Source: Chloroflexia bacterium (GTDB lineage Bacteria > Chloroflexota > Chloroflexia > Thermomicrobiales > CFX8). Taken from it: a stretch of DNA of 64,000 nt. Positions 34,572-50,560 of the stretch are shown piece after piece. Made by a program: the position numbers and the translations under genes. Under the pieces are notes generated by a model. That model was not told the origin of the DNA. It saw only the letters and a list, made by a program, of their open reading frames with translations, and did not search any database. Location: NCBI GenBank assembly GCA_030431755.1, contig JAUIIK010000005.1, positions 2,801 through 66,800 on the forward strand, given 5' to 3'. The stretch's first letter is position 1. Each line of letters begins with the position of its first letter.

Positions 34572-36083
34572 CTATCGAGTCGCCACGCCTTCCTCGGCCC
34601 GCACGGCTGTTACCGCAGCCTCTCCCGCAATTCGACCGAAGACCGCGCCGGATGTCAGCCCGGTCCCGCCTGGGTAGTTGAAGTAGAACAGGCCACCGAC
34701 GATCTCGCCCGCGGCGAACAGTCCCGGTATCGGCTGCAAATCCTCGTTCAGAACCTGGCCTTCGGTGTTTATGCGCAGTCCACCGAACGTGAATGTAATG
34801 CCGCAGGTCACCTGATAGGCCTCGAAGGGCGGCGAGTCCAGGCGGTTGGCCCAGTTCTGCCGTGGTATCGGCAACCCATCCGCGCTCCGTCCATCCTTGA
34901 CAGTAGGATCGAACGGTATGTCGGTTCTCACGGCCTCGTTGTATGCCGTTACCGTCTCCAAGAAGCGGCTGGCGTCAACATCTTCAAGCTTCTCAGCGAG
35001 TTCTTCGAGGGTATCCGCTGTGACCTTCGTGACTTCACGAATGCGGTACTCGTCGCGCAGCAGGTTCGTCACCTTCTGATCGAAGATCTGCCACGCGAAT
35101 TGCCCAGGCTGCTCGAGAACGCGCCGACCGTACTCGGCGTAGGTATAGTTGCGGAAATCAGCGCCTTCATCGACGAAGCGCTCGCCTCGAGCATTGATCA
35201 TGATGCCAAATGGATAGCTGTGCTTCTGAAAGCCATCGCCGACTGCCAGATCGCCAAAGTCCGGAGCGTTGCGATCCCAGCCCACTGAGTGGCAGCCAGA
35301 CCAGTTGCCCCAGGGAATCGCGCCGACATCCAACGCCATCCGAATTCCGTCGCCTGTGTTATGTCGTGTTCCGCGTACTTTGGCCAGCTCCCAACCGGGG
35401 CCCAGATACCGCGTGCGCCACTCAGCGTTGGACTCAAAGCCGCCGCAGGCAAGCACAACAGCGCCACAGTGGATCTCTCGAGTCTCGCTTCCTGACCGCA
35501 CGACGAGCCCCTTGATCGTGCCGTCTTCCTCGATGAGGCGTTCGGCTCGCGTGCCGTACTGGATTTCGATGCCCTGGCGCTCGCAAGCGCCGACCAGCGC
35601 CTCAATCAGCCCTGGCCCCCCACCGGACACGAGCAGTGTGATGCCGCCCCAGAACTTGAAGTGTCCGTTGACTTTGAAGGCCTGATGCGAATATGCAGGC
35701 ACAAAGCGCACCTGGTGATTATCATGCAGCCACTGCCATGTGGACAGGCTCTGCGTGACCATGATTGGCACCAGCTCCGGATCGGAGCGAAACTGCGTAA
35801 TGCGATCCATGTCCTCGTAGAACTTGTCGGCCGTATACGTCCCGAAATCGGTCGTGCGCTTTTCTTCCTCATTGAGATCCGGGACAAGCGTCAGCAGATC
35901 ATCGAGGCTCTCATAGACGGTTCGAATAGCCCCACCGGTGAATCGGCTGTTTCCACCTTGCTCTGCCTCGCTGGCGCGTTCCAGGACGACCACGTCGGCG
36001 CCCTGCTCACGAGCTGCGAGCGCAGCGCACAGCGCCGCGTTTCCTGCGCCGACGACAACGACCGTGTTATTCCTTGCAGACAT
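34572..36083 (-). CDS. FAD-dependent oxidoreductase, TcuA-like (fumarate reductase/succinate dehydrogenase flavoprotein fold)
   Basis: N-terminal VVVVGAGNAALCAALAAREQGADVVVLE dinucleotide fold, GGNSRFTGG, and a C-terminal AAGEIVGG...GTGLTSGAVFGR block. Confidence 0.7.
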   Translation of the reverse strand: MSARNNTVVVVGAGNAALCAALAAREQGADVVVLERASEAEQGGNSRFTGGAIRTVYESLDDLLTLVPDLNEEEKRTTDFGTYTADKFYEDMDRITQFRSDPELVPIMVTQSLSTWQWLHDNHQVRFVPAYSHQAFKVNGHFKFWGGITLLVSGGGPGLIEALVGACERQGIEIQYGTRAERLIEEDGTIKGLVVRSGSETREIHCGAVVLACGGFESNAEWRTRYLGPGWELAKVRGTRHNTGDGIRMALDVGAIPWGNWSGCHSVGWDRNAPDFGDLAVGDGFQKHSYPFGIMINARGERFVDEGADFRNYTYAEYGRRVLEQPGQFAWQIFDQKVTNLLRDEYRIREVTKVTADTLEELAEKLEDVDASRFLETVTAYNEAVRTDIPFDPTVKDGRSADGLPIPRQNWANRLDSPPFEAYQVTCGITFTFGGLRINTEGQVLNEDLQPIPGLFAAGEIVGGLFYFNYPGGTGLTSGAVFGRIAGEAAVTAVRAEEGVATR

Positions 36084-36116: not shown

Positions 36117-38438
36117 CTAGCGGATGCCCTGGCCCCCGCGGTTAATGATTTGCCAGATCTTGCGGTCAGTGATCGGCAGGTCGAGCGGCTCAACATCAAA
36201 TGGACGCAGCGCATCCATGACGGCGTTCGCCACTGCCGGCGGCGCATGGACGGTGCCAGCCTCGCCTACCCCCTTGGCCCCGAGAATGTTCCGCGGGGTC
36301 GGAGTAACCGTGCGCTCAAGTTGAAAGTTTGGAAACCATGAGGCTTTCGGCACTGCATAGTCCATCAAGGAACCAGACACGAGCTGGCCGCTATCGTCGT
36401 AGACCACCTGCTCCCACAGCGTCTCGGCAATGCCCTGGACCGCGCCACCGATAAGCTGGCCTTCAACAAGACGTGGGTTCACCACGTTGCCGACGTCATC
36501 GACAGAAACAAAGCGTTCGATCGTTGGTTTGCCGGTGTCGCGATCGATCGACACGAGCGCGGCCGTAGAACCGAATGGGAACGTATCCCCATCGGCCTGA
36601 TACCGAACATTCGCCTCAATTCCTCGCGCCGCGCCGCCAGCTGCGTCATGGCCGTTCTTCGCCAGATAGCTCTCGACTACCTGCTCCAGACGCAGGCGGA
36701 TCTCGGGAGCGCCGCGCGGTCCGACTTCGCCGCCCTCGAGGACGAGGTCATCCGGGGTGACTTCCAACATCTCAGCTGCTTCCGACAAGACCGTCTCGCG
36801 CACCGCCTCCGCTGCCTGTCGGAGTGCGCTGCCGCCTAGCTGCAAACTGCGGCTACCCATAGTGCCGCCGCCACGCGGTTCCACCGCGGTGTCGCCATGC
36901 GTGATGTGGATGTCATCGAGCGCGACGCCCAGCTCGTCACTGATCAGCTGAGCGAAACTCGTCGCGAGGCCCTGCCCGTGGGGCGATGTTCCGGTCACAG
37001 CCTGGATGTGACCATCCTGATCGAGTGTGAGTACCCCTGCGTCGCCGCCGCCGCCGGAAACCTCAACACAGCTGGCGAGCCCAAGCCCAACGACCTCGCC
37101 TGCCGCTCGACGCTCCTCGATCTGCGACTTCAGGGTCTCGAGATCCAGCAGATCGGACAAGCGGTCAAGCGCCTTGTGATAGTCCCCGCTGTCGTAGATA
37201 ATGCCCGACGCATTGGTGTAGGGGAACGCATCTGCCGCTATGAAATTGCGGCGGCGGATGTCGGCTTGGTCCATCCCGAGCGCGTGTGCCACGTCGCTGA
37301 CAACCCGCTCGATGAAGTAGGCGGCTTCCGGCCGGCCGGCCCCGCGATAAGGCCCGACAGGCCCGGTGTTCGTGAAGACAGAGACGATCTCCGATTGCAC
37401 TTCGGGGATCGTGTACGCGCCAGTTGGAAACAGCAACATACGCATCGGCGGCCCGGCGGCGAACTTCATAAGGTATGCGCCAAGGTTCGCAACGGTGCGA
37501 AGCTTCAGGGCTCGAATCCGGCCGTCACTGTCGAATGCCACCTCGCCGTCGGTGTAGGCTTCGCGCCCGTGCATCGAAGATTGAAGATCCTCACTGCGGG
37601 TGGCGATCCACTGCACCGGGCGTCCAGCAATGCGCGCCAATGCGAGCAGGAGGATATCTTCGCGATAGGCGGTCATCTTCGCGCCGAATGCGCCACCAAC
37701 GTCAGGGGTGATGACGCGCACATCTTCGTCTGGCACGCCCATCGCCGTGGCGAGGTCACCACGCTCAAGCCAGGCCGCCTGGGTGCTCAGCCAGAGTGTG
37801 AACTTGCCGGTCTCCTCATCGTAGGAACCGATTCCCCCGCGATTCTCTATTGGGATCGCGGCGACGCGCCCATGCCCCACGCGCACCGACATACGATGTT
37901 CGGCGGCGGCGAAGGCTTCGTCAACCCCGCCCGTGTCCTTCTCCGCAGTCGTGACAACATTCGTGCCAAACTGTGGGTGGACGAGGCTGGCTGACTCCTT
38001 CAACGCCTCGCGGGCGTCAACAACAGCCGGCTGGGTCTCGTAGTCGACCGAGATGAGCTCAAGCGCGTCCTCAGCGATCGCCTGTGACTCGGCCACGACT
38101 GCCACGAGCGGGTCGCCAACGAATCTGACAACGTCGCCAGCGAGCGGCGGATGCTCCGGGATATTGATGTCACCGCCGACAGGGACATCGCCAACATCCC
38201 CCAGGTCAGCCGCCGTCACTACCGCGAGGACGCCATTAAGCTGACTAGCAGCCGTGGTATCTATAGAGCGAACATTCGCATGCGCATGGGGGCTTCTCAG
38301 TAGAGCCACGTATGCGAGATCGGCTATATCTAGATCTTCAAGGTATTGCCCGGCACCGGTAATCAACCGTGGATCTTCGATCCGCTTGACCGACTGCCCG
38401 GTCAACGCCGCGCGTGCTCTGTTCGTTTCGTCTGTCAT
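36117..38438 (-). CDS. xanthine dehydrogenase/aldehyde oxidase family molybdopterin-binding large subunit
   Basis: GQSVKRIEDPRLITGAGQYLEDL hammerhead start, GGAFG and GGGTMGSRS blocks, C-terminal GAKGVGEAG. The ATG at 38438 is preferred over the ORF start at 38477. Confidence 0.85.
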   Translation of the reverse strand: MTDETNRARAALTGQSVKRIEDPRLITGAGQYLEDLDIADLAYVALLRSPHAHANVRSIDTTAASQLNGVLAVVTAADLGDVGDVPVGGDINIPEHPPLAGDVVRFVGDPLVAVVAESQAIAEDALELISVDYETQPAVVDAREALKESASLVHPQFGTNVVTTAEKDTGGVDEAFAAAEHRMSVRVGHGRVAAIPIENRGGIGSYDEETGKFTLWLSTQAAWLERGDLATAMGVPDEDVRVITPDVGGAFGAKMTAYREDILLLALARIAGRPVQWIATRSEDLQSSMHGREAYTDGEVAFDSDGRIRALKLRTVANLGAYLMKFAAGPPMRMLLFPTGAYTIPEVQSEIVSVFTNTGPVGPYRGAGRPEAAYFIERVVSDVAHALGMDQADIRRRNFIAADAFPYTNASGIIYDSGDYHKALDRLSDLLDLETLKSQIEERRAAGEVVGLGLASCVEVSGGGGDAGVLTLDQDGHIQAVTGTSPHGQGLATSFAQLISDELGVALDDIHITHGDTAVEPRGGGTMGSRSLQLGGSALRQAAEAVRETVLSEAAEMLEVTPDDLVLEGGEVGPRGAPEIRLRLEQVVESYLAKNGHDAAGGAARGIEANVRYQADGDTFPFGSTAALVSIDRDTGKPTIERFVSVDDVGNVVNPRLVEGQLIGGAVQGIAETLWEQVVYDDSGQLVSGSLMDYAVPKASWFPNFQLERTVTPTPRNILGAKGVGEAGTVHAPPAVANAVMDALRPFDVEPLDLPITDRKIWQIINRGGQGIR

Positions 38439-38462
38439 GCTTTCTCTCCCTACACAGAGTGC

Positions 38463-38475
38463 GTACAATGTATCC
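38463..38475. promoter_or_regulatory. candidate GntR operator (GTACAATGTATCC) in the Mo-hydroxylase/gntR divergent region
   Basis: TACA-A-TGTA palindrome. It resembles the 20-bp repeats at 43115 and 43352. Confidence 0.35.
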
Positions 38476-38503
38476 AATTCTTGGTGACGAAAGGGTCTAC
38501 GTC

Positions 38504-39232
38504 ATGGCGTCAAACGAAATCTCCTCAAACTCAGCGAAACAGCTTACAAAAATGTGGGAGAACCAGACGATGACCGGAGCCACGTCGGACATGGTTCATC
38601 ACGTCTTACAAGAAGCAATCGTCTCCCATATCCTTGAGCCCGGGCAGCGTCTGACTGAAGAGCAGCTGGCCGGGCTCTTTGCCGTGAGCCGCACCCCGGT
38701 GCGGGAAGCGATCGTCAGGCTCGAAGCCGAACACTTTGCGCAACGTATTCCGCGCCGCGGGCTGGTGGTCAGCAGGGTGACGCCCCAGGACATCGTCGAC
38801 GTCTATATTGTGCGAGAGGCCAACGACGGGCTCGCTGCCTTTCTGGCCGCGCAACATGCAACACCCGCCGACGTATCGAATCTTGAGTGGATCAACAGCC
38901 AGTTCGGCGCTGCGGCGACAGGCGCGGCTGAAAACATGCACCAGCTCGTCACCCTGAACCTGCAGTTCCACGAGGCACTCGCCGAGTCCTCGAACAATAC
39001 CCTGCTCTTGAACATCGTGAAACAGGTCCACAACGTCGTGCGCCGATTCGGAAGCACGACCTTTCGGAAGTCCGGACGCGCGGAGACCTCGGCCGTCGAA
39101 CATGCCCGGCTCGTCGAGGCAATCAAGGCCGGCGACGCAGAGCGTGCGCGCCAGATCGCCGTAGACCACATGGCGACGGCGCGCCGCATTCGCATCTTGA
39201 TGCTTGAGCAAGAAGACTCGACTCCCGTCTAG
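38504..39232 (+). CDS. GntR family transcriptional regulator (FadR/FCD-type C-terminal domain)
   Basis: wHTH LTEEQLAGLFAVSRTPVREAIVRLEAE, followed by a helical FCD-like domain. The start at 38504 is uncertain; the ORF is open from 38414. Confidence 0.85.
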   Translation: MASNEISSNSAKQLTKMWENQTMTGATSDMVHHVLQEAIVSHILEPGQRLTEEQLAGLFAVSRTPVREAIVRLEAEHFAQRIPRRGLVVSRVTPQDIVDVYIVREANDGLAAFLAAQHATPADVSNLEWINSQFGAAATGAAENMHQLVTLNLQFHEALAESSNNTLLLNIVKQVHNVVRRFGSTTFRKSGRAETSAVEHARLVEAIKAGDAERARQIAVDHMATARRIRILMLEQEDSTPV

Positions 39233-39304: not shown

Positions 39305-40229
39305 TCATCCTCGGATATGGCGCTGACGCGGATCCAACAGATCACGAAGCCCGTCGCCAATGAAGTTGAAGCTCAGTACGGCCAGAAAGATGAATGCGCC
39401 GGGGATGATCGACTGCCACGGATTCACCTCGAGAAAGACGTACCCGTCCCGCAGCATCCCGCCCCAGCTCGGGGTCGGAGGCGGTACGCCAAGGCCCAGG
39501 AAACTCAGACTCGCCTCGGCAAATACGACCTGACCAGCGCCGAGCGAGGCCTGGATCAGAACGATGCTCACGAGGTTGGGGAGAAAGTGGCGAACCACGA
39601 GACGCGGCGGGCGCACGCCAATCGCGCTGGCGGCGACAATGAACTCCTGGTTTCGCAGAGCGAGCACCTGGCCGCGCGTCAAGCGCGCTGTACCCGGAAT
39701 GCGTACGACGGTCAACGCGATGATGATGCTCTGGAGGCTTGCCCCTAACGCAAACGCGATGGTCAACGCCAGAATCAGGCTTGGGAAAGCCATCATCCCG
39801 TCCGTGGCCCGCATGATCACACTGTCGACCCAACCAAATCCATAGCCACTGATGAGGCCGAGGGCGACACCGATGATCGTGCCGCCAACGACGGCGCTCA
39901 ACGCGACGAAGAGCGAGATCCTGCCCCCGTAGATGATGCGCGAAAGACTATCCCGTCCCAGGGTGTCGGTTCCAAAGAGATGCTCCCGTGTCGGTTCTTC
40001 TAACCGTGCCGTCGCGTCGATCTGGTTCGGGCTATACGGCGCGATCACCGGAGCGAACACGGCGCCCAGCACAAGGATCAAGAGCACCATCATGCCGATG
40101 CCGAGCTGCGGGTACGCGCGCGATCCGCAGCCACTCCAGCGGCAGGCTCTTTCGGGGCCGGCGCTCCGCGCCCAGCGTCTCGGCGCTGCCTAGATCCCTC
40201 AACGTCGAATCCGCCGTCGATCTAGCCAT
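39305..40229 (-). pseudogene. DppC/OppC-type ABC permease, N-terminus in a different frame (apparent 1-nt frameshift near 40110-40125)
   Basis: The ATG at 40229 overlaps the dppB-like stop (ATGGCTAG) and encodes ...RKSLPLEWLRIAR, which aligns with the DppC N-terminus. The frame then breaks in a GCGCGCG run. The remainder (YPQLGIGMMVLLILVLGAVFAPVIAPYSP...) continues in the frame of ORF 39305-40093. Confidence 0.65.
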
Positions 40230-41178
40230 ACATTGCCCGAATTCTTGGGTCCAGCAGACCGTAGGCGAGGTCGGTCACGAGATTCACCGCGACTACCATG
40301 AGCGTGATGAAGAGGACGACGCCTTGCACGACTGGCAGGTCCCGGCCAAATATCGCGTCGATGATCAACGTCCCCATGCCCGGTAGCGAGAAGATCGTCT
40401 CGGTCACCACGGCGCCGGCAAAGAGCCCGCCCATCTCAAGGCCGAGGATCGTGACGATGGGGATGAGCGCATTCTTCATAGCGTGCCCGAAGATGACAGC
40501 GCGCGAGCGCAGGCCTTTGGCCCTGGCAGTGCGCACATAGTCCTGGTCGAGCACTTCCAGCATCGATGATCTGACGTAGCGCGCCTGGGAGCCGATGTAG
40601 CCGGTCGCGAGTGTCAACGTCGGCAGCAGCATGAGCTTCAGGTTCTGGACCGGATCATCGAGAAACGGCACGTATCCCGATGACGGCAACCAACCCAGCT
40701 TGAGCGAGAAGGCGAAGATGAGCAGGATACCGAGCCAGAAGTTCGGTATAGAAAGGCTGATCGAGGCAAGCCCCGAGATCACGACATCAACCGGCGACCC
40801 TGGCCGCAACGCAGCCAAGGTCCCCAGTGGGATTGATATCGCCAGCGCCAGACCAAGCGCGAGGAACGTCAGCTCTAGTGTTACCGGAAGCCGATCACGG
40901 ATGGTGTCGGTAACCGTCACCGGGCTCCGCCAGGAGGTCCCGAGATCGCCACTAAGGACGTGTCGCATCCAATCGAGATATTGGACCGGCACCGGACGAT
41001 TTACCCCCAGGTCCTCGCGCATCCGGTCGATTGTCTGCTGATCGGCAGCCGTGTCCTGTCCAAGGATGACAAGCACCGGGTCTCCGACGACCATGCTCAT
41101 GAGCGCGAACGTCGCAATGGAGATCACGATCAGCACGGGCAACATTTGCAGTAGTCGTCGGAGAACGTACCGGAACAT
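40222..41178 (-). CDS. DppB/OppB-type ABC permease
   Basis: MFRYVLRRLLQMLPVLIVISIATF start and BPD_transp_1 core, both typical of DppB. Confidence 0.85.
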   Translation of the reverse strand: MFRYVLRRLLQMLPVLIVISIATFALMSMVVGDPVLVILGQDTAADQQTIDRMREDLGVNRPVPVQYLDWMRHVLSGDLGTSWRSPVTVTDTIRDRLPVTLELTFLALGLALAISIPLGTLAALRPGSPVDVVISGLASISLSIPNFWLGILLIFAFSLKLGWLPSSGYVPFLDDPVQNLKLMLLPTLTLATGYIGSQARYVRSSMLEVLDQDYVRTARAKGLRSRAVIFGHAMKNALIPIVTILGLEMGGLFAGAVVTETIFSLPGMGTLIIDAIFGRDLPVVQGVVLFITLMVVAVNLVTDLAYGLLDPRIRAMYG

Positions 41179-41189
41179 GTCAAGCCCTA

Positions 41190-43025
41190 TCAGCTGGAGC
41201 TAAGTGAGAATTCGCGCAACCGGAGAATCAGATCCGGGTGGTAGACGAAGTTCTGAAGCTCCGCCCGACGAACCGCAAAGACCGATGGCCAGTGCTGGAA
41301 CGTGTAGTCAGCCTGCTCGATAATCAGCCGCTCCACCTCGTGATAGATCTCGGCGGCTTCGGCCGTGTCGTAGATGGATGCAGCCTCGTCGAGCAGCTCG
41401 TCGATCGTTGCGTTGTCGGAGCCAGTCGTGTTCTGGAAACCCGTTGAATACCACAGGATTCGCAAGAGCCCGTCGGGGTCCGCCCGGGGGGCCCAGCTCG
41501 TCGGCACCCAGTTGCTGACGTCCTCTTTGGTCAGCGTAAACGCATCGGCAGCATTGACCGTCTCAATTTCAACGGTAATACCCAGCTCTTGATACTGCGC
41601 CTGGAGCAACTGGGCGAGTGTCTGATTGAACTGCGTGTTCGAAGCAGTGAGGGTAAAGGTTTCGCCTGCCATGCCCGAAGCTTCGACGAACTCCTTCGCG
41701 AGGTCGAGGTCGAAGTCCAGCCCCTCGGAGTCAAGGCTCGGGTCGTAGGCCCAGCCGCCACCGAGCGGGTGGGTGGCTACGCGCCCTGTGCCCCCGTACA
41801 TCACTTCCTTGATCTGCTCGCGGTCGGTGGCATGCGCGATGGCCTTGCGGAAGTCAGCGTTGTCAAACGGCGGCTTGTCGAGGTCGAAGTGCGTGCCGGC
41901 GAAACGGGCGCTCTGCAGCTCTTCGATCACGAGGTCGTCTTAGTTCTCGACTGTCTCGAGCAGCGTCGGATCAACGCCGTCGATGATGTGGGCTTCGCCA
42001 GTTCTAATCTGCGTAAGCTGGACCTGAGTCTCGGGAACATGGCGGATCTCGATGCGGTCGAGATACGGCTTGCCGTCTTCCCAGTAGTCTTCGAAACGCT
42101 CGAGGGCTATGAAACCATCGGGCGCCCACTCCACGAACTTGAAGGGACCGGAACCAACGGGGTTAAGGGCGAACTGATCACCAAGTTCCTGAGCGGCAGT
42201 CGGCGACACAATGAAACCGGGCCGTTCGCCGAGCGTCGCCAGAATCGGACGCCAGGGCTTCGACAGGTTGACCTGGACAGTCACGGCATCGAGCGCGTCA
42301 ACAGACGCGATGGCCTCTGAGAGCTGGCTGCTGAGCGGCGAGTTCACTTCGGGATCCAGCACGCGCTCAATGTTCCACTTGATGGCTTCCGCATCACAGG
42401 GGGTTCCGTCATGGAACACGACACCTTCATGAAGGTTGAAGGTGATGACCGTGCCGTCCTCGCTGAAATCCCAGGACTCCGCAAGCTCTGGAATGATGTT
42501 GAAGTCGACATCGTATCCAACCAGGTTGTTGTAGATCAGGTACAGGGCGTAGCGCTCGGAAAACTGCGCTGAGAAGTGCGGGTCCAATGTATTGGCATCG
42601 AGGTTTGTCGCATACACTAGCGTGCCGCCGGTCGCCGGCGCTTCACCTGAGTCACCTTCCGTTGGCGATGCCTCGCCCTCGTCGGCAGCCGTCTCCGTCG
42701 GATCTGCTCCGTCGCCATCCTCGGACTCCGTCGCCTCCCCTTCGTCGGCAGCCTCGGTTGGCGTGGCCTCTGAACCACCATCATCTGAGGTGGCCGTCGC
42801 CTCTTGGGCAGCGCCGCCCGATGTCGCGGTCGCATTGTCGTCATCATCGTCGTCGTCATCGCCACCACACGCAGCGAGAAGCGCGCTTGCGACGACGCCA
42901 GCCGAGAGGCCGACGAAAGCCCGGCGAGAAATCTGATGGCGTTGGAACTGATCGAGATAGTCACTTGGATTCGGCATTAGTCTCCTCCTCAATGCCTCAC
43001 GTTGATATGCGCCTAGGTTCGCCAT
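41190..43025 (-). pseudogene. family 5 (peptide/nickel-type) substrate-binding lipoprotein interrupted by an in-frame TAA (41940-41942)
   Basis: ORFs 41940-43025 and 41190-41930 are in the same frame and read ...LLETVEN[TAA]DDLVIEELQSARFAGTHF... across the stop. The N-terminal part has a TAT signal, a lipobox (LLAAC) and an acidic linker. The C-terminal part has no signal peptide. Confidence 0.7.
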
Positions 43026-43114: not shown

Positions 43115-43134
43115 GAATACAGTGTATACAGTCC
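43115..43134. promoter_or_regulatory. candidate operator GAATACAGTGTATACAGTCC
   Basis: Contains overlapping palindromes ATACA-G-TGTAT and TGTATACA. A near-identical copy lies 237 bp downstream. Confidence 0.45.
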
Positions 43135-43351: not shown

Positions 43352-43371
43352 GAATACACTGTATACACTCC
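43352..43371. promoter_or_regulatory. candidate operator GAATACACTGTATACACTCC
   Basis: 18 of 20 positions identical to 43115-43134. It sits about 65 bp upstream of the first cyclophilin-like gene. Confidence 0.45.
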
Positions 43372-43434: not shown

Positions 43435-43863
43435 ATGCGAATACAAGTCAAAGTCGGTGACACGGTAGCCGAGGCAGCCCTGTTCGAGGACAAGGCGCCG
43501 AAGACGGTCTCAGCCCTGTGGGAGCGCTTGCCGATTCAGGATCGCACCATCCAAGCACGTTGGTCCGGCGACGCCTGGCGCACGGAGGGCAACTATGAAC
43601 TGCTCACCCAGGCAGATCCCGTCGAGAACGGGGCTGAGCGGCTCAGCGCCGGCGACGTCATCTACTATCCTGGCTATCGCAGCGGCCTGCTCAAGGTCGC
43701 CATCGCCTACGGCAACGCCCAATGGCTCGCGCCATTCATGGTGCCGCTCGATGTCTCGCACATCGGGAAGATCGACACGAACCTGGATCAATTCGTCGAG
43801 CAGTGCTCGCAAATCATCTTCCAGGGCCCATTCGAAATTGAGATCTCGCGTATCGAATCCTAA
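43435..43863 (+). CDS. cyclophilin-like fold protein (DUF3830-type, assigned from memory)
   Basis: 142 aa: MRIQVKVGDTVAEAALFEDKAPKTVSALWERLP...WSGDAWRTEG...AGDVIYYPG. Paralog of 44009-44437. Confidence 0.55.
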   Translation: MRIQVKVGDTVAEAALFEDKAPKTVSALWERLPIQDRTIQARWSGDAWRTEGNYELLTQADPVENGAERLSAGDVIYYPGYRSGLLKVAIAYGNAQWLAPFMVPLDVSHIGKIDTNLDQFVEQCSQIIFQGPFEIEISRIES

Positions 43864-44008
43864 CCGCAGATATTCCGTATGCCGCGTGGCGCGGACGAGA
43901 CTCTCGCCGGTCGTGGCCAACGCGCGTTCGGGCACGGCGTGCACGAGCGCGAACCAGTAAGAGCAACAAGACAGCAGGTCACAACGACCAGAAAGGAACC
44001 AATTCCCA

Positions 44009-44437
44009 ATGCGCATCCAGATCAAAGTCGGAGATGTCGTCGCCGAAGCGCAGCTCTTCGATGACAAAGCGCCGAAGACCACGAAAGCTCTCTGGGAGCA
44101 CCTGCCCATCACCGATCGCACGATTCAGACCCGCTGGTCAGGCGACGCCTGGCGCACCGAAGGAAACTACGAGCTACGGCCCGAAGGTGAGCCCGTCGAA
44201 AACGTCGCCGGGCGGCTGAGCGCCGGAGACATCATCCACTTCCCTGGCTACCGCGGAGGGCTGATCAAGGTCGGCATCGCCTATGGCAAGGCTCAGTGGC
44301 TCAACCCGTTCATGGAGCCGATCGACGTCGCGTACCTCGGGAAAATCGACACGAACCTGGACGAGTACGTCGAACTCTGCCAGCGAATCATCTTCGACGG
44401 TCCGCTCGACGTCGAGATTACGCGCATAGAGGAATAG
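44009..44437 (+). CDS. cyclophilin-like fold protein (DUF3830-type), tandem paralog
   Basis: 142 aa, colinear with 43435-43863 and roughly 70% identical to it by eye. Confidence 0.55.
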   Translation: MRIQIKVGDVVAEAQLFDDKAPKTTKALWEHLPITDRTIQTRWSGDAWRTEGNYELRPEGEPVENVAGRLSAGDIIHFPGYRGGLIKVGIAYGKAQWLNPFMEPIDVAYLGKIDTNLDEYVELCQRIIFDGPLDVEITRIEE

Positions 44438-44461
44438 CCGTAGCTCGGAGGGGAGGCGTCA

Positions 44462-45463
44462 ATGCTCTTTGGCCTCGGGATTCCAACATGCAGAGAGGGA
44501 CTCGCCTATCCGGTGAGCTTCGCCGATCTGTAGCAGACGGCTGAGCTAGCGCGCGCCGCGGAGCGGCATGGATTCGACGCGCTCTGGGGGAACGATCACC
44601 TGGCGACCCAGCGCGTCCTGCTGGACACGCTTGAGAATCCACCTGACTTCTACGAACCGCTTGTTGCATTCGCGTATCTTGCCGGGCAGGTGCCACGCCT
44701 GCGCTTTGTCGCGGCAACCATAGTCGCCCCGCTGCGCGATCCCGTGTTGCTGGCGAAGCAAGTGGCGACGCTCGATCAAGCATCACAGGGACGCTTCACA
44801 CTCGGCTTGGGCATTGGGGCGTACCGCGAGGAGTTCAACGCGCTCTTCCCCAACCTCAAGGGCGCGCACCGTGGCCGGATGATGAACGAGACGATCGCGG
44901 TAGTGCGCGAGCTCACCACGAAGCGGCGGGCAGCGTTCGACGGGGAGTTCTATCAGTTCACCGAGATTGAGATGTTCCCAAAGCCTGTCCAAGATCCGCT
45001 ACCGATCTTCGTGAGTGCCAGTACGCCGGCCACAATCGAGCGCGCCGCCCTCCGAGCTGATGGATTGATTCTGGCCGGCGCATCGCCCGCACGCGTTGCC
45101 GACGCCGCAAGCCACTTTCGGGCAGCGGCCGAGGAGGCGGGGCGCGACACCGATATGCTCCAGGTATGCGCGCAAGTGTGGGTCGGCGTCGGAGCCGACG
45201 ATGCGGCAGCCACCGCGACATTACGAAACTCCCAGCACTTCAAACGACTGGAAGCGCTACGACCGGACAAAGATGCGGAGACGCTCACGCAGGAGTTCCA
45301 AACGGGAAATCTCCTCGGTGATCCGGACGCCATCAAGGCTCGCATTCGTGAGTATGAAGCGGCCGGGGTAGACCACCTCGGACTGGTCTTCCTGGGCCAG
45401 CAGATCGATGATCTGCACGCCCAGGTCGAGTTGTTCGGTCAATCCGTCATCGCCTCGTCCTAA
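44462..45463 (+). pseudogene. luciferase-like (LLM) flavin/F420-dependent oxidoreductase with an in-frame TAG (44531-44533)
   Basis: The ATG at 44462 gives MLFGLGIPTCREGLAYPVSFADL[TAG]QTAELARAAERHGFDALWGNDHL..., in the same frame as ORF 44690-45463 (GRFTLGLGIGAYREEF...). Confidence 0.65.
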
Positions 45464-45520
45464 CGACGGCGACACCTGGCACGACTGCGTGTCATCGTCC
45501 AAATGAATGGAAGTTGCCTC

Positions 45521-46405
45521 ATGCCGTACATAGACATTGATCTCGACGGAACCGTCTACCGCGCAGCCCTGCTGGAAGATCGCTCGCCAAACACCACTGC
45601 CGCGCTCTGGTCAGCACTGCCCATCGAAGGCCGTGCCGCGCACGGGCAATGGAGCGGTGCGATCTTCCGCATGCTGGAAGAAGCCCCGGTCGAATTTCCT
45701 GCCGGCGACCGAGGGGCGGGATTCCAGTACCCCGGTCTGGTTGTGATCAACCCCGGGAATCGTGAGATTGCGATCTGCTACGGACAGGGCCGGCTAAACC
45801 TTCCGACCGGTCCGTTGAATCCGATTCCCGTGGCCGAAATCGGCGGCGACCTCTCCGCAATCGTCGATTTTGGCGTGAGCCTGCAATTCGATGGCGCAAA
45901 GTCGATCCGTATCAGCGCGTCCGAAGACCAGGAGTCACAGCTCGCACCGCCGCCGAATCCGGGCGGTCGGGTAATGGATGTGACGCTTGGCGCAAGCACG
46001 ACACCAGCCGTTCTGCTCAAGGACATTTCGCCGGTCGCCTCGGGCGCATTTGGCGATCTGCTGCCTCTTCAGGGACGGGCGACCAATACCCACTCGAGCG
46101 GACCACTCGTCCGTTTCTGGAACGATGAAGGCGGGCCCGAGGGTGAGACGCCACTGGAGGTCGAGGATCTGGAACGCGGTCAGGCAATACTCTACCCAAG
46201 CTACCTCTACTACTTGCCGTCGCGTCCATGGCGCGGCGTTCGCATTCCCATCGAGGCAACTGCCATGGGTGGCGCTGTCAGCCGCGGGACGACGCAGCTC
46301 GTGCCCTTCGCGCGCTTCACCGGAGATTGGTCGGAGTTTCGGGCGGAAGCCTTGCGCTTGATCGTCGATGGGGCTAAACCGATGGAGTTTCGGCTTCGAG
46401 ACTAG
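45521..46405 (+). CDS. protein with two cyclophilin-like (DUF3830-type) domains
   Basis: The N-terminal half MPYIDIDLDGTVYRAALLEDRSPNTTAALWSALP...WSGAIF resembles the two upstream paralogs. The C-terminal half repeats the pattern more weakly. Confidence 0.5.
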   Translation: MPYIDIDLDGTVYRAALLEDRSPNTTAALWSALPIEGRAAHGQWSGAIFRMLEEAPVEFPAGDRGAGFQYPGLVVINPGNREIAICYGQGRLNLPTGPLNPIPVAEIGGDLSAIVDFGVSLQFDGAKSIRISASEDQESQLAPPPNPGGRVMDVTLGASTTPAVLLKDISPVASGAFGDLLPLQGRATNTHSSGPLVRFWNDEGGPEGETPLEVEDLERGQAILYPSYLYYLPSRPWRGVRIPIEATAMGGAVSRGTTQLVPFARFTGDWSEFRAEALRLIVDGAKPMEFRLRD

Positions 46406-46528
46406 ACATCACCACTTGCCTCGTTCAATGCTTGACGCAGTACCAACACCGACCCGGTCAAGGTATCAATGGGTTGGTACGAGCTTCCAGCAACCATGAC
46501 CCGAAAGGATGAGCCCTTGAGCAGCCAA

Positions 46529-47476
46529 ATGGAAATGAGCAAGACAGAGCGTGTCATGGCGGCCGTCGCCGGGCACAACGTCGATCGCCTGCCCGTATGC
46601 TTCTGGCATCACTTCAAGCCAGCCGGTTCCGGGCGGCGCATGGCGGAGGTAACGTTTGACTTCTTCGCCAACCAATTCGATCTTGACATCCTCAAGATCA
46701 TGCCGGACATCCCATATCCCGTTTCGCGCCGCTCAATCAAGAACCTTGACGATTGGCGGCTGATCGAGCCCATCGACAGCGTGCGCTCGCGCTTCTTCAA
46801 TCAGCGCGCAGTCAGCATCCGGGCGTTGCGTGACATCGTCGGCTACGAAACGCCGATCGTGATGACCGTCTTCTCCCCGCTCTGCGAAGCGCTCCACTTC
46901 GTCGAATCGTATGATCTGTTCTTCGAACACTACGATCAATCACCGGCGGTTATCCACGAGGCGCTCGCAACGATGGCCGAGAACCTCCGGGCTCACATGC
47001 AAGACTGCATCGACGCCGGCGCAGACGGGGTCTTCTTTGCGCTGCAGGGCTGCACGGACGCGATCATGTCCCGTGACCGATATCGGGAGCTCGGTCGGCC
47101 GTACGACTTGCTTGCCCTCCAGGGACTCCAGGATGGATGGCTTAACATCCTCCACGTCCACGGCAATGAAGATCTCCACTTCGAAGAGACGCTCGACTAT
47201 CCGGTCAGCGTGATGTCCTGGTCCGACCGGCTCGCGGGTCCGAGCCTGGCGGACGCGCGTGCCCTCACCGACAAGTGCCTGATGGGTGGTTGGCACGAGT
47301 TTGGGCCGCTCTCGAATGGCCCGGAAGATGCCATCCGGGAGGAAGCACAAGACGCTATCGAGCAGACCGGCGGCCGCAAGTTCATTCTCGCAAACGGCTG
47401 CTCCGTCCCGGATGACACGCCTGAAGAGTGGTTGCATGCTGCCCGCAATATGGTCGAGTCACTCGATCTCTCGTAG
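46529..47476 (+). CDS. uroporphyrinogen decarboxylase (URO-D) family protein, MtaA/UroD-like
   Basis: ERVMAAVAGHNVDRLPVCFWHHF... start and TIM-barrel-like length. The start is uncertain; the ORF is open from 46469. Confidence 0.55.
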   Translation: MEMSKTERVMAAVAGHNVDRLPVCFWHHFKPAGSGRRMAEVTFDFFANQFDLDILKIMPDIPYPVSRRSIKNLDDWRLIEPIDSVRSRFFNQRAVSIRALRDIVGYETPIVMTVFSPLCEALHFVESYDLFFEHYDQSPAVIHEALATMAENLRAHMQDCIDAGADGVFFALQGCTDAIMSRDRYRELGRPYDLLALQGLQDGWLNILHVHGNEDLHFEETLDYPVSVMSWSDRLAGPSLADARALTDKCLMGGWHEFGPLSNGPEDAIREEAQDAIEQTGGRKFILANGCSVPDDTPEEWLHAARNMVESLDLS

Positions 47477-47550
47477 ACGTTCCGTAGTCGCTTGAGCGAG
47501 GGGCTTCGGTACTGGGACACCTAACCGTGAAATACCTGGATTGAGCTAAC

Positions 47551-47994
47551 GTGTTCTCAACCGTCCGCCAGCACTACCAGCTCATTTCGGCCATTGCGTT
47601 GGTCATTGGAGTGGCGTTGATCACGGTGGCCGAGATGCCGAGCATGCACTGGACACGCGTCTTTGGGGCCACCGCCATCTCGCTCGGGGCGCTGGGACTC
47701 GGCATCTACGTGGGCCTGACACAACCGGGCCGCTATGCCGCCGCCCGGGCACGCCTGGCCAGCATCAAACAGCAGATCGGCATCGTCATGTTGGTCGTGC
47801 TCTTTCTGCCTGCGCTGCTCGGTCTCGGAGCAGGCATCGCTGGATTGTTCAACAGCCCTGGCGGCACCGGCTGGGTCATCGCGACCGGCGCGCTCATCCT
47901 GGCGTTGATGCTCGCGGCCACGGTCGCCGCCTTCGTCATCGGTGTCCAGGCGCTCACCGGCCACAGTCCGGTTGAAGGCGACGACGCGGCATGA
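47551..47994 (+). CDS. small membrane protein (4 TM), translationally coupled to the downstream gene
   Basis: 147 aa with four hydrophobic helices. The stop overlaps the next start (ATGA at 47991-94). Confidence 0.55.
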   Translation: MFSTVRQHYQLISAIALVIGVALITVAEMPSMHWTRVFGATAISLGALGLGIYVGLTQPGRYAAARARLASIKQQIGIVMLVVLFLPALLGLGAGIAGLFNSPGGTGWVIATGALILALMLAATVAAFVIGVQALTGHSPVEGDDAA

Positions 47995-50084
47995 CCGCAA
48001 CCCGTGAGATCCTCTGGAACGTCGGCTCCCTACAGGTCCTCATCCTCTACATCCTGCTGGTTCTACCAGTCGCCTTCCTCGCCTTCGGCGTCGCCCGCCG
48101 GGTGCAGATGTGGCGGCGCGGCCAACCCGACACCAGCCGCTTCGACCGCTGGCCCGAGCGTGCCCGCGCGGCGCTCACCAAGAGCATCCTCCACGGCCGT
48201 ATCGTCCGTCGCGGGAAGCTCTATGCCGGCCTGATGCACGCCAACATCTTCGGTGGCTTCATCATCCTCCTCATCGGCACCATCATCGTCCTGATCGAGG
48301 AGGACATCACCGTCCCGCTCTTCGGCTGGAGCTTCTACCAGGGCGACTTCTACCTCGGCTACAAGCTCATCGTGAACCTCGGCGGCGTCATGCTCATCGT
48401 TGGCGTCCTGCTGGCCTTCGCCCGCCGCTATCTCATCAAGCCGAAGTTCCAGGAGACCGGTCCCGACGATCTGCTCGTGCTCGTCTTCTTGCTGCTGCTG
48501 GCCGTCCAGGGCTTCACAACCCAGGCGTTGCGGCTGGCCGTCGAAGGCGATCCCTGGGGTCCCTGGTCCTGGGTCAGCTACCCGATGGCGCTGCCGTTGA
48601 GCGCGCTCTCGACCGGGACGCTGGAGACGCTGCATACCGCCAACTGGATCAGCCACTTCGCGACGACCTACGTCTTGCTGGCCTACTGGGCCTACAGCAA
48701 GATGATCCATCCCTTCACCAGCCTGGCCAACGTCTTCTTCCGGCGTTTCGAGCCGCTGGGCGAGCTGCGGCGCATCCCGGAGATCGAGGCAGCCGAGGTG
48801 CTGGGCTACGGCAAGCTGGAGGACTTCTCCTGGGCGCACCTGATGAATGTCGACGCCTGCATGCACTGTGGCCGCTGTCTCGAGTACTGTCCGACCTTCA
48901 ACACCGGCAAACCGCTGCATCCGCGTGATCTGGTGCTCGAGCTGGCCAGCTTCCAGGCCGACCAGGGCGGTATCTGGAGCGGCGAGCTGGGCGGCGAGGC
49001 CAAGACGGCGCGGCATCGTTGGGGCAAGGGCGCTGAGCGTGAGCTGATTCCCGGCGTCGTCTCGCCCGAGGAGCTCTGGGACTGCACGACCTGCGGCGCC
49101 TGCATCGAGCACTGCCCGGTCTACATCGAGCATGTCCCGATGATCGTCAGCATGCGCCAGCACCTGGTGCTCGAACGGGGCGAGTTCCCGAGCGAGGTCA
49201 CGCCGACCTTCAACAACCTGGAGCGCTTCGGCAGCCCCTACCCGATTCCCCAGAGCCAGCGTGACGACTGGACCAAGCGGCTCGCCGAGCCGGTCAGATA
49301 CATGGCCGAGTTGGAGGAGACCGAGGAGGTCGAGTACCTCTTCTTCGTCGGCTGTCTGGGCTCGTTTGACGAGCGCAACCAGCGCACGACGCTGGCGTTG
49401 TGCCGGATACTCCAGGCGGCGGGGGTCAACTTCGCGATTCTCGGCAAGGAGGAGACCTGCACCGGCGACCCGGCCAAGCGCATCGGCAACGAGTATCTGG
49501 CCCAGATCATGGCCGAGCAGACGGTCGAGACGCTCAACAGCTACAGCTTCAAGAAGATCGTCACCGCTTGTCCGCACTGCTTCAATGCCATCGCCAACGA
49601 GTTCCCGCAGATTGGCGGCGCGTACGAGGTGATCCACCACAGCCAGCTGCTCAATGACTTGCTTGCCAGTGGCCGGGTCAGCCTGGATCCGGAGTCGGCG
49701 ATGGCGCGCGGCAAGGTGACCTACCACGACCCCTGCTACCTGGGGCGCTACAACGGCGTTTATGATGCGCCGCGCGAGGCAGTGGCGGCGATGCCGGGGG
49801 CGGAGCTGGTCGAGATGCGGCGCAACCGCAACCGGAGCTTCTGTTGTGGTGGCGGTGGTGGCCGGCTGTTCATGGAGGAGCAGCGTGGCAGCCGGATCAA
49901 CCAGGCGCGGGTGGCGGAGGCGTTGGAGACGGGGGCTGAGCTGTTGTGTGCGGCCTGTCCCTTCTGTATGACGATGTTCGAGGACGGTATCCGCGGCGTT
50001 GGCGCCGACGATGACTTCCAGGTCCTCGACCTCGCTGAGATCGTCGCCGGCTCGATGGTCGAGGAGCCGACTGTCAAACAGTAG
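47991..50084 (+). CDS. membrane-anchored Fe-S oxidoreductase: NarI/DsrM-like 5-6 TM domain fused to a 2x[4Fe-4S] ferredoxin domain and two CCG (HdrD/GlpC-like) domains
   Basis: N-terminal TM helices with conserved His. CMHCGRCLEYCP and CTTCGACIEHCP cluster motifs. CCG-type blocks FFVGCLGSF...CTGDP and CPHC...SFCCGGGGG. Confidence 0.75.
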   Translation: MTATREILWNVGSLQVLILYILLVLPVAFLAFGVARRVQMWRRGQPDTSRFDRWPERARAALTKSILHGRIVRRGKLYAGLMHANIFGGFIILLIGTIIVLIEEDITVPLFGWSFYQGDFYLGYKLIVNLGGVMLIVGVLLAFARRYLIKPKFQETGPDDLLVLVFLLLLAVQGFTTQALRLAVEGDPWGPWSWVSYPMALPLSALSTGTLETLHTANWISHFATTYVLLAYWAYSKMIHPFTSLANVFFRRFEPLGELRRIPEIEAAEVLGYGKLEDFSWAHLMNVDACMHCGRCLEYCPTFNTGKPLHPRDLVLELASFQADQGGIWSGELGGEAKTARHRWGKGAERELIPGVVSPEELWDCTTCGACIEHCPVYIEHVPMIVSMRQHLVLERGEFPSEVTPTFNNLERFGSPYPIPQSQRDDWTKRLAEPVRYMAELEETEEVEYLFFVGCLGSFDERNQRTTLALCRILQAAGVNFAILGKEETCTGDPAKRIGNEYLAQIMAEQTVETLNSYSFKKIVTACPHCFNAIANEFPQIGGAYEVIHHSQLLNDLLASGRVSLDPESAMARGKVTYHDPCYLGRYNGVYDAPREAVAAMPGAELVEMRRNRNRSFCCGGGGGRLFMEEQRGSRINQARVAEALETGAELLCAACPFCMTMFEDGIRGVGADDDFQVLDLAEIVAGSMVEEPTVKQ

Positions 50085-50560
50085 CTCGAACGCGCCGGCG
50101 CTCCAATGCCCATTGAGAGCGTATTGCTCGTCATGACGAGTGACAGGTCTACTTGAGACACTCGGTTGTTGTCCCAAGGAACTCCAGGCTCGTCCTCGCG
50201 CCTCCTATGGGAGCGGCAATTCAACGTGCGAAGCGGACAGAGCGAACATCTGCTCGCGTCTCCGCGTGGAGAGTGTGAGATACACGCGATGCCCGTCTCC
50301 AAGTCCGAAGAGTGAAGCACGGCTGCCCCAAGCACAGGGCAGTCAGACCCTGCATGGCATCTGACCGGCTACTCCTTATGCCCCATCAGTCGGTACAATA
50401 AGTAGCATAGGCGAGATGGACTTTGGTGCGACCGTACGCGGGTAACGGTACGGTGCAATGATGTCCTATTTCGATCTGGTACCCGGCGACGTTACGTACC
50501 GATATCAGGACCGCGTTTCGTCTTCGCGTGATTCTGGAGCGTGGACCGGGCTTGTAGCAG

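Follow-up and report, generated by a model that had tools for sequence, protein, structure and literature searches.

A probably composite gene block in a Thermomicrobiales genome: a DUF3830/luciferase-like regulon next to a detached copy of etfD

Introduction

What does a run of seven genes on one strand, with four cyclophilin-like domains among their products, do in a member of the Thermomicrobiales, and is it a single functional unit? The genes lie at positions 43435-50084 of a 64,000-nucleotide stretch of contig JAUIIK010000005.1 from a Chloroflexia bacterium (assembly GCA_030431755.1), and the whole of this stretch is referred to here as the window. They encode two small proteins of the Pfam family DUF3830, an oxidoreductase of the luciferase-like monooxygenase (LLM) class, a tandem DUF3830 protein, a uroporphyrinogen decarboxylase-like (URO-D-like) protein, a protein with four transmembrane segments (4-TM) and a large membrane Fe-S protein. 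A reading of the locus made from its letters, without database searches (hereafter the sequence-only reading), took the block and its flanks for one substrate-inducible catabolic or redox module which passes its electrons to the membrane through the last protein, then described as HdrD-like. The analysis reported here suggests that the block is probably a composite (rough probability 0.6), made up of an accessory regulon under a GntR/FCD regulator, a paralog of a URO-D-like gene, and a detached second copy of a 4-TM and etfD gene pair. The regulon occurs sporadically and is possibly mobile.

The window genome (G000) is a 5.1-Mb draft or metagenome-assembled genome (MAG) of 272 contigs with 2.8% contamination. 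Linkage was surveyed at about 18 distinct related loci, drawn from metagenomes and species genomes, to which the window proteins were mapped; among these, L001 is the closest relative, L002 is its companion assembly, L005 is close to a duplicate of L004, and L008 and L031 are the same locus. A pattern scan of the genome contigs with a 5-sequence alignment gave only 4 Thermomicrobiales loci, one of them new. Order-wide counts refer to 151 Thermomicrobiales genomes, the phylum sample to 401 genomes, and the same-genus comparison to 4 genomes. The seven genes of the block are as follows.

43435..43863, plus strand: small DUF3830 protein a, 142 aa (PF12903, 58.7 bits; 82% identity to the L001 ortholog)
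44009..44437, plus strand: small DUF3830 protein b, 142 aa (PF12903, 54.9 bits; AlphaFold2 pLDDT 93)
44462..45463, plus strand: Mer-like LLM oxidoreductase of the predicted F420 class, interrupted by TAG (PF00296, 192 bits; TIGR03619, 199.4 bits)
45521..46405, plus strand: tandem two-domain DUF3830 protein, 294 aa (N-terminal half DUF3830, 49.6 bits)
46469..47476, plus strand: URO-D/MT2-like TIM-barrel protein (PF01208, 87 bits)
47551..47994, plus strand: 4-TM protein (four hydrophobic segments; ATGA overlap with the next gene)
47991..50084, plus strand: predicted EtfD-type membrane Fe-S/heme oxidoreductase, 697 aa (NarI-like domain, 4Fe-4S dicluster, two CCG domains)

Open-reading-frame listing, translation and profile searches agreed with what had been read from the letters about the paired 142-aa paralogs (72% identical to each other, both above the DUF3830 cut-off), the luciferase-like oxidoreductase, the 4-TM protein with its ATGA coupling, and the domain layout of the 697-aa protein. 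The same applies to the flanks, which carry a GntR/FCD regulator, a molybdenum hydroxylase (Mo-hydroxylase)/TcuA-like pair and a family 5 importer. The questions that remain concern which of these genes belong together, and what they may do.

A conserved triad within the block

The conserved unit at this locus is not the seven-gene block; it is the set formed by the small DUF3830 gene or genes, the Mer-like F420-type LLM gene and the tandem DUF3830 gene. The three components, with the small gene in one to three copies, occur together at 11 loci, which include distant Chloroflexota, and most of the other loci are cut by a contig end. The exception is L004 (with its near-duplicate L005), where no LLM gene was found within 10 kb. 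An ABC importer is present at every locus with enough contig, being of family 5 in most and of the family 3 polar-amino-acid/opine type in the distant lineage of G521, and a GntR/FCD regulator, a Mo-hydroxylase large subunit and a TcuA-family flavoprotein are each present at most loci. At L033, the tandem gene, the LLM gene, the small gene, the binding-protein gene and oppBC form one co-directional operon in which the genes overlap. At these loci, DUF3830 genes co-occur with LLM genes as had been expected; URO-D-like genes are linked to them at only a few loci, and the CCG-domain gene only in the lineage of the window and L001. The idea of a substrate-inducible catabolic module stands for the triad, importer, regulator, TcuA-like and Mo-hydroxylase genes, which are co-conserved, and falls short in the window itself, where three of the genes are broken.

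L004 and L005 (GCA_028872835 and GCA_028876375) represent a richer DUF3830 locus that is wired differently. Three small and two tandem DUF3830 genes are found there among three family 5 binding-protein genes, together with genes for a GntR regulator, a MaoC hydratase, an acyl-CoA dehydrogenase, an HpcH/HpaI lyase, a PrpD/MmgE protein and an aldehyde:ferredoxin oxidoreductase (AFOR).

In the window, the partner genes and candidate control sites of the triad lie upstream of it.

34572..36083, minus strand: TcuA-family FAD flavoprotein, 503 aa (PF00890, 161 bits; NF006130, 585 bits)
36117..38438, minus strand: Mo-hydroxylase (xanthine-dehydrogenase family) large subunit (PF02738, PF20256, PF01315)
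38461..38476, no strand assigned: operator-like word GCGTACAATGTATCCA, between the Mo-hydroxylase and GntR genes, read from the sequence
38505..39232, plus strand: GntR/FCD regulator (PF00392 and PF07729; reading frame open from 38414, ATG at 38505 the likely start)
39305..40229, minus strand: oppC/dppC-like permease, frameshifted near 40121 (tblastn with the intact L001 OppC)
40222..41178, minus strand: oppB/dppB-like permease (PF00528 and PF19300; 89% identity to L001)
41190..43025, minus strand: family 5 solute-binding lipoprotein with an in-frame TAA at 41940-41942 (PF00496 matches both halves)
43117..43132, no strand assigned: operator candidate 1, ATACAGTGTATACAGT (pattern match; core TGTATACA)
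43354..43369, no strand assigned: operator candidate 2, ATACACTGTATACACT, 65 bp upstream of the first DUF3830 gene

The GntR/FCD regulator is 86% identical in L001, and at most loci its gene neighbours the triad. Two copies of the palindrome TGTATACA, flanked by ACAGT-type sequence, stand in the divergent promoter region of the window, where candidate operators had already been noted; four matches were counted in the window (the two sites and their overlapping opposite-strand matches), against 0.00 expected in shuffles. Candidate 1 overlaps a promoter-like TTGACA-16-TACACT on the minus, or importer, strand (43148-43121). Eight further distinct loci (L001, L003, L004, L006, L007, L008, L009 and L032) keep the same core upstream of a small DUF3830 gene, and this recurrence is good comparative evidence for a single regulon, predicted to be under the GntR/FCD repressor. 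The word GCGTACAATGTATCCA resembles the TACA-N-TGTAT core of both sites upstream of the DUF3830 genes, and GTATAC-type words lie near the GntR genes in L003, L006, L008, L031 and L032. The 410-bp leader had no riboswitch match in Rfam. The DUF3830/F420-LLM triad regulon is new, and constitutes an undescribed variant of the repressor-controlled import and catabolism cluster, built round a family without an assigned function.

The nearest solved relatives of the L001 binding-protein ortholog (598 aa) are 5U4O, AgaA (6HLX, which binds the opine agropinic acid) and GsiB. The flavoprotein of the window recalls the TcuA/TcuB system of Salmonella enterica, as it passes the NCBI model NF006130, 'tricarballylate dehydrogenase TcuA' (585 bits, cut-off 369), and scores below cut-off on TIGR02485 (266 against 373 bits). 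Its relatives, with 26-91% identity, are found in or adjoining the triad in L001, L003, L007-L010, L030, L038, L043 and G010; at L007, L009, L010, L030 and L038 a TcuA-family gene comes immediately downstream of the tandem gene. In the G010 cluster, TcuA is followed by a true TcuB (TIGR02484, 416 bits), and the L038 cluster has a CitB-family gene; a search for TcuB (CitB) with TIGR02484 found no match in the window genome. Unlike its Salmonella counterpart, the window flavoprotein is paired with the Mo-hydroxylase and the DUF3830/LLM triad rather than with the transporter TcuC.

The Mo-hydroxylase gave its best NCBIfam match with the glyceraldehyde dehydrogenase alpha model (656 bits, below the cut-off of 790), and is co-located with the triad in L001, L003, L006, L008, L030, L032, L037, L038 and L039. 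Genes for the small and medium subunits were found beside the large-subunit gene neither in the window nor at most loci. Clusters without the Mo-hydroxylase have other aldehyde oxidisers, namely two NAD-dependent aldehyde dehydrogenase (ALDH) genes in G521 and a tungsten AFOR in L004; such replacement by non-orthologous enzymes suggests an aldehyde intermediate. Genes for isochorismatase-family hydrolases adjoin the triad three times (L031, L037 and L042).

Fragments of phage-integrase genes lie directly beyond the TcuA-like gene in L001 (1-526), and the GC content of the window dips to 0.59-0.61 over 38-46 kb, against 0.63-0.67 around it; the two together hint at a mobile island for the whole block. 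The 476 bp that follow etfD (50085-50560) contain no convincing open reading frame and no Rfam match, and may mark the end of the island.

The membrane Fe-S protein and its 4-TM partner

On sequence grounds, the protein called HdrD-like is a homologue of EtfD, the electron-transfer flavoprotein (ETF):menaquinone oxidoreductase of the mycobacterial type. The 697-aa protein was matched to Mycolicibacterium smegmatis EtfD (PDB 9OJN, determined by cryo-EM) with an E-value of 3.4e-112, residues 21-320 and 354-689 being aligned. It was compared with the cluster and heme ligands of 9OJN as listed in PMC13083937: the motif CxxCxxCxxxCP occurs twice, the CCG motifs VGC, ETCTGD, CPHC, DPC, CCGGGG and CPFC are kept, and one His is aligned in each of the two heme-ligand regions, for which the ligand numbering was not mapped. 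The layout is that of mycobacterial EtfD (Rv0338c / MSMEG), with a TM/heme-b domain, two cubane [4Fe-4S] motifs and two CCG domains, the difference being that the window protein is without the ~265-residue disordered C-terminal tail. The mycobacterial EtfD is described as a single polypeptide (PMC13083937), whereas a small 4-TM gene precedes etfD in Thermomicrobiales, and the window copy stands without etfBA, after the URO-D-like gene.

EtfD orthologs (63-86% identity) were found in 70 of the 151 genomes, including 3/4 same-genus genomes without any DUF3830 gene. The comparison covered ten other EtfD-type loci, namely contig C170 (L024) of the window genome and nine from relatives. At all ten, the 4-TM gene or etfD itself is preceded by etfB-etfA (by etfA alone on C170, which begins in that gene), and the arrangement at the nine relatives' loci is etfB, etfA, the 4-TM gene (undetected in L023) and etfD. 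No etfA or etfB gene is present in the 64-kb window. C170 (1810 bp) continues from etfA across the 4-TM gene and breaks off early in etfD, inside a repeat. The window genome has two etfD units, like the same-genus genome G062, and the distal part of one of them is collapsed or missing in the assembly. The junction between the URO-D-like and 4-TM genes of the window lies in unique sequence, and is the same in the independently assembled L001/L002, which show 79-91% protein identity across the cluster. In L001, a 1.6-kb internal deletion joins the opening codons of the 4-TM gene, in the wrong frame, to codon 408 of etfD, with the loss of EtfD residues 1-407; the EtfD copy has been destroyed in a cluster that still encodes an intact LLM (337 aa) and an intact binding protein (598 aa). 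On this evidence, the EtfD copy is an optional extra or a passenger rather than a conserved part of the module, and its proposed role as the electron outlet of the module was not upheld. By analogy with G010 and L038, it is a plausible conjecture that the copy might serve the TcuA-like flavoprotein in place of TcuB.

The 4-TM gene, which has no family assignment, lies between etfA and etfD at 8 of the 9 loci probed with the window gene (L018-L022 and L024-L026, not L023), and is often translationally coupled to etfD; in L013, a small open reading frame of matching size and start lies between etfA and etfD. The 4-TM protein may be an unrecognised EtfD subunit. In related MAGs, etfD carries an in-frame TGA or is split (G071:C10:69416-71491, G048:C14:80648-82722 and G047:C25). 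As several MAGs have a broken etfD, gene lesions or assembly errors are common in this genome group.

The URO-D-like gene

The product of the URO-D-like gene belongs to the URO-D family, as had been read from its sequence, and the further comparison with MtaA did not hold, the scores on the MtaA/CmuA (MT2) models being 59 and 69 bits, far below the cut-offs of TIGR01463 and NF004889 (235 and 244 bits). In the alignment to MtaA (4AY7), the zinc motif LHICGN...GCG reads LHVHGN...GCS, so that His-x-Cys...Cys has become His-x-His...Cys. No corrinoid protein gene is present in the block. The gene has a 78% paralog at G000:C245, and same-genus genomes without DUF3830 have 77% URO-D-like orthologs, each about 23 kb from etfD. 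It is linked to the triad at 4 of the ~18 loci, namely the window, L001/L002, L032 and G010 (the last a remnant with a stop codon). As a paralog of a core gene with this distribution, it does not appear to be a fixed member of the module, and is at best a facultative accessory.

The core URO-D/MT2-like protein of the window genome has 321 aa (G000:C245:25880-26830; L034 9871-10836), with orthologs in G071, G062, G012, G017 and G041. It is conserved across the order as the product of a single gene, which in the genus stands alone apart from a following gene for 133-135 aa.

Probable gene decay in the window genome

Three lesions affect the module in this genome. Of these, the TAG in the LLM gene had been recorded by the sequence-only reading in a separate note and not with this block. 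Codon 24 of the LLM gene is TAG (44531-44533) where L001 and L003 have an invariant CAG (Gln); the TAA of the binding-protein gene (41940-41942) stands where the L001 ortholog has GAA (Glu); and oppC carries a 2-bp deletion outside any homopolymer, seen as a 2-bp gap in the DNA alignment and as a split of the L001 OppC match between frame -3 (40229-40116) and frame -1 (40123-39308). Between the window and L001, dN/dS is 0.03-0.09 for the nine cluster genes that allowed an estimate, with dS saturated for the LLM gene and a value of 0.09 for small protein a; because of these low ratios, the lesions are considered recent. Going by these predicted lesions, the module is probably non-functional in this genome. 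Recoding of TAG (pyrrolysine or read-through) was considered and rejected, because the TAG aligns with a conserved CAG/Gln and the neighbouring genes carry a TAA and a 2-bp deletion; the three defects together therefore point to ordinary decay.

Identity, distribution and fold of the DUF3830 proteins

The model of Pfam DUF3830 (PF12903) has 143 positions and a gathering threshold of 26 bits, which is passed by three proteins of the window, each with coverage of model positions 1-142. The family is represented by PDB 3KOP from Arthrobacter sp. FB24 and is related to Cyclophil_like PF04126 (TM1367, AF2241). In the tandem protein, the C-terminal half is a repeat that has diverged further and matches the small protein weakly (BLASTP E 6e-5), and the AlphaFold2 model of the tandem protein (pLDDT 86) shows an identical order of strands and helices twice over. 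Its DUF3830 match, the BLASTP match and the duplicated fold together bear out the presence of two related domains in this protein, and hence of four cyclophilin-like domains in the block.

For small protein b, 239 homologs were found in MAGs of Thermomicrobiales/Chloroflexota and in metagenomes, most of them with 65-86% identity; those named are from Thermomicrobiales, Thermomicrobiaceae or Chloroflexota MAGs. The three genes of the window are the only DUF3830 genes of their genome. In the order, a DUF3830 gene is present in 85 of 151 genomes, and nearly all of these are one high-scoring "canonical" gene (100-160 bits). The low-scoring subfamily of the window type (44-59 bits) is found in about 6 of the 151 genomes and in none of the 4 same-genus genomes. 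The tandem two-domain protein occurs in 5 of the 401 genomes across the phylum, and a search of 1.84 billion cluster representatives gave only 41 clusters for it at E<=1e-30. Given such low genome counts, the module is a rare accessory trait. The window subfamily also differs from the canonical one in always being accompanied by an LLM and a tandem relative, whereas canonical genes are singletons in unrelated contexts; at seven canonical loci inspected, the neighbours varied and included genes for a P-type ATPase, malate synthase, a helicase, cation efflux, GH4 and MazG, among others.

The Foldseek search with the small-protein model (pLDDT 93) gave 3KOP as its top match (E 6.6e-9, TMq 0.86), so that profile and fold agree in placing the small proteins in DUF3830 and not in an unrelated family. 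The next matches were the Pictet-Spenglerases KslB (E ~5e-7, TMq ~0.77, rmsd 2.5-3 A) and McbB, above TM1367, AF2241 and true cyclophilins, and the list for the tandem-protein model was the same. Searched against PDB sequences, the DUF3830 profile reaches 3KOP, AF2241 and TM1367 and does not reach KslB or McbB; the link to the Pictet-Spenglerases is therefore one of fold alone. Glu64-Asn65 is invariant across 40 DUF3830 sequences, as are several Arg and Trp residues, and an EN...GD motif (Glu-Asn and Gly-Asp) is common to the small proteins, 3KOP, AF2241 and TM1367. In the tandem protein, the conserved EN motif is mostly gone from both halves. No paper on DUF3830 or PF12903 was found, in agreement with the earlier view of a family without an assigned function, and literature searches on McbB with cyclophilin-like, and on cyclophilin-like with luciferase-like and F420, returned nothing.

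The LLM oxidoreductase and F420

The LLM of the window passes TIGR03619 (the Rv2161c family; cut-off 166.9 bits), and its structural relatives include the F420-dependent enzymes Mer, Adf, FGD and fHMAD. It matches Mer models as well as Mer structures. It differs from these enzymes in that its gene is cut by a nonsense codon, and its use of F420 is a prediction made from the sequence. In the window genome, CofD (F420 2-phospho-L-lactate transferase) was found with 319.5 bits, above the cut-off of 257 bits. Mer carries out hydride transfer between F420 and an iminium carbon. We know of no TIGR03619 member with a known substrate.

Proposed chemistry and alternative explanations

A tentative function can be put together from the genes, their linkage, the operator and the folds, namely the F420-linked C-N cleavage of an opine-like amine with release of an aldehyde; it is considered a good deal less likely than the composite structure of the block. 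The importer would take up an amino-acid-derived secondary or cyclic amine carboxylate of the opine-like kind. The DUF3830 barrels would hold the substrate, their fold being that of the substrate-binding catalytic barrel of Pictet-Spenglerases, and the LLM would pass a hydride of the C-N carbon on to F420, in the manner of Mer working in reverse. Opening or hydrolysis of the resulting iminium would yield an amino acid together with an aldehyde or keto acid, the aldehyde would be oxidised by the Mo enzyme, and the saturated acid would be desaturated by the TcuA-like flavoprotein. The repressor would leave its TGTATACA operators once the substrate was present. In a bolder and no more likely version, the DUF3830 barrels (two single and one tandem) and the LLM would form an undescribed multi-subunit F420-dependent C-N oxidoreductase/lyase, a 'retro-Pictet-Spenglerase' or opine cleaver; in the lineage of the window, the duplicated EtfD, freed from ETF, might have been recruited in place of TcuB as the electron sink of the TcuA-like flavoprotein.

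The barrel of the Pictet-Spenglerases (KslB, 9NS6/9NST/9K0A; McbB, 3X27; StnK2; cucumopine/mikimopine synthases) is the best functionally characterised structural match of the DUF3830 proteins. These enzymes perform iminium chemistry between an amino acid and an aldehyde or 2-oxoacid (PMC12012969, PMC12536604). The KslB/McbB barrel holds L-Trp and a 2-oxoacid or aldehyde partner and bears a catalytic Glu (PMC12012969), and the same family includes the cucumopine and mikimopine opine synthases (PMC12536604). The catalytic residue is Glu274 in KslB and Glu97 in McbB, for which the candidate counterpart in DUF3830 would be the Glu of the invariant Glu64-Asn65. The DUF3830 proteins of the window consist of one barrel (142 aa) or two (294 aa) without the helical bundle, and are therefore not members of the Pictet-Spenglerase family. 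The context of the window genes, with an importer, a repressor and dehydrogenases, is also catabolic and not biosynthetic.

Several points weigh against this account of the block and its chemistry. From the beginning of the 4-TM gene onward, C170 and the window (47551-48320) have 93-100% DNA identity, and the distal part of the window etfD may be a collapsed repeat; both the lesions and the EtfD join come from a 272-contig draft/MAG assembly. The proposed chemistry draws on a fold resemblance at 17-18% identity and on neighbouring genes. The helical-bundle domain PF18631 was found in neither the cluster proteins nor the genome, the genome search having been made without a positive control. CofH (TIGR03551) had no match in the window genome, although the model cross-hits 12 of 14 control genomes; either the Fo synthase was missed or is divergent, or Fo is salvaged. 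Finally, the Mo-hydroxylase could be an N-heterocycle hydroxylase and not an aldehyde oxidase, which the recurrent isochorismatase-family hydrolases would fit.

How the block is divided, and whether it is intact, bears on two alternatives. All seven same-strand genes and their flanks could form one module in which the 4-TM/HdrD-like pair is a dedicated outlet to the quinone pool, re-oxidising the TcuA-like flavoprotein or the LLM cofactor in place of TcuB. The shared strand, gaps of 24-145 bp, the ATGA overlap and the want of any terminator-like site between the genes would agree with such a module, as would the URO-D/4-TM/etfD adjacency, which is ancestral to the window and L001 lineage, and the need of TcuA enzymes for a membrane Fe-S partner, G010 having a TcuB after TcuA, L038 a CitB-family gene and the window genome no TcuB. 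A single module is nevertheless improbable, as EtfD orthologs are spread over the order with or without DUF3830, all ten other loci place them after etfBA or etfA, among the triad loci etfD is adjacent only in the lineage of the window and L001, and the L001 deletion removes the 4-TM and EtfD products while leaving the rest intact. The lesions and the EtfD junction could also be artefacts of assembly or strain mixing in a draft MAG, the module being intact and functional in the organism. The fragmented and slightly contaminated assembly, the near-identical second 4-TM/etfD stretch that ends C170 inside a repeat, the broken etfD genes in other MAGs of the genus, and dN/dS values that speak of long-term purifying selection would all be expected in that case. 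It is still judged unlikely, since the defects are three and independent (two nonsense codons and one 2-bp non-homopolymer deletion), are confined to 4.5 kb of the block, and the URO-D to 4-TM junction, in unique sequence, is confirmed by the L001 and L002 assemblies. The composite structure with recent decay is accordingly retained.

The chemistry of the regulon is open to two further interpretations. Large subunits of the xanthine-dehydrogenase family are classic N-heterocycle hydroxylases, and the module might degrade an N-heteroaromatic compound or cyclic amide (nicotinate-, hydantoin- or ureide-like) through a Mo ring hydroxylase, isochorismatase-family amidases and ring reduction by the LLM, with DUF3830 catalysing an unrelated hydrolytic or isomerase step. 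The family of the Mo enzyme, the CoxS/CoxM-type subunits in L032 and L039, and the isochorismatase genes beside three triads are in keeping with such a pathway, whereas the preference of the Mo subunit for glyceraldehyde/aldehyde dehydrogenase models, the inability of the ALDH/AFOR substitutes of other lineages to hydroxylate rings, and the absence of Fe-S/FAD subunit genes here and at most loci make it no more probable than the single module. Alternatively, DUF3830 proteins might not be enzymes at all, and would act as ligand-holding, scaffold or chaperone subunits of the LLM, or as substrate carriers, leaving the chemistry to the LLM and the flavoprotein. Cyclophilin-like domains often serve as binding modules, and such a role elsewhere, the loss of most of the EN motif from the tandem halves and the variable copy number of the small gene (1-3) would all suit a non-catalytic function. 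This too is unlikely, as the proteins are strongly conserved (65-86% identity across many MAGs, dN/dS 0.03-0.09), the invariant Glu-Asn, Arg and Trp form a pattern typical of active sites, and the nearest characterised fold relatives are enzymes with their active site in the barrel. The opine-like C-N cleavage stays the preferred, if tentative, chemistry.

Biological significance

The practical value of the module is small for this genome, since it appears to be dying there. Beyond it, the identification of EtfD extends a recently solved mycobacterial enzyme to the Chloroflexota, with a conserved 4-TM partner and two copies in the genus. A structure of a DUF3830 protein has been available since 2009, and the family is widespread, as its count in this order alone illustrates, and no paper mentioning the family was found; the triad, the repressor-operator pair and the dedicated importer together offer a defined handle on its function, and the fold link to Pictet-Spenglerases points to iminium (C-N) chemistry. 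If the proposal is true, Thermomicrobiales would use imported opine-like or cyclic amine carboxylates, converting them to an amino acid and an aldehyde, and this would be the first function for DUF3830.

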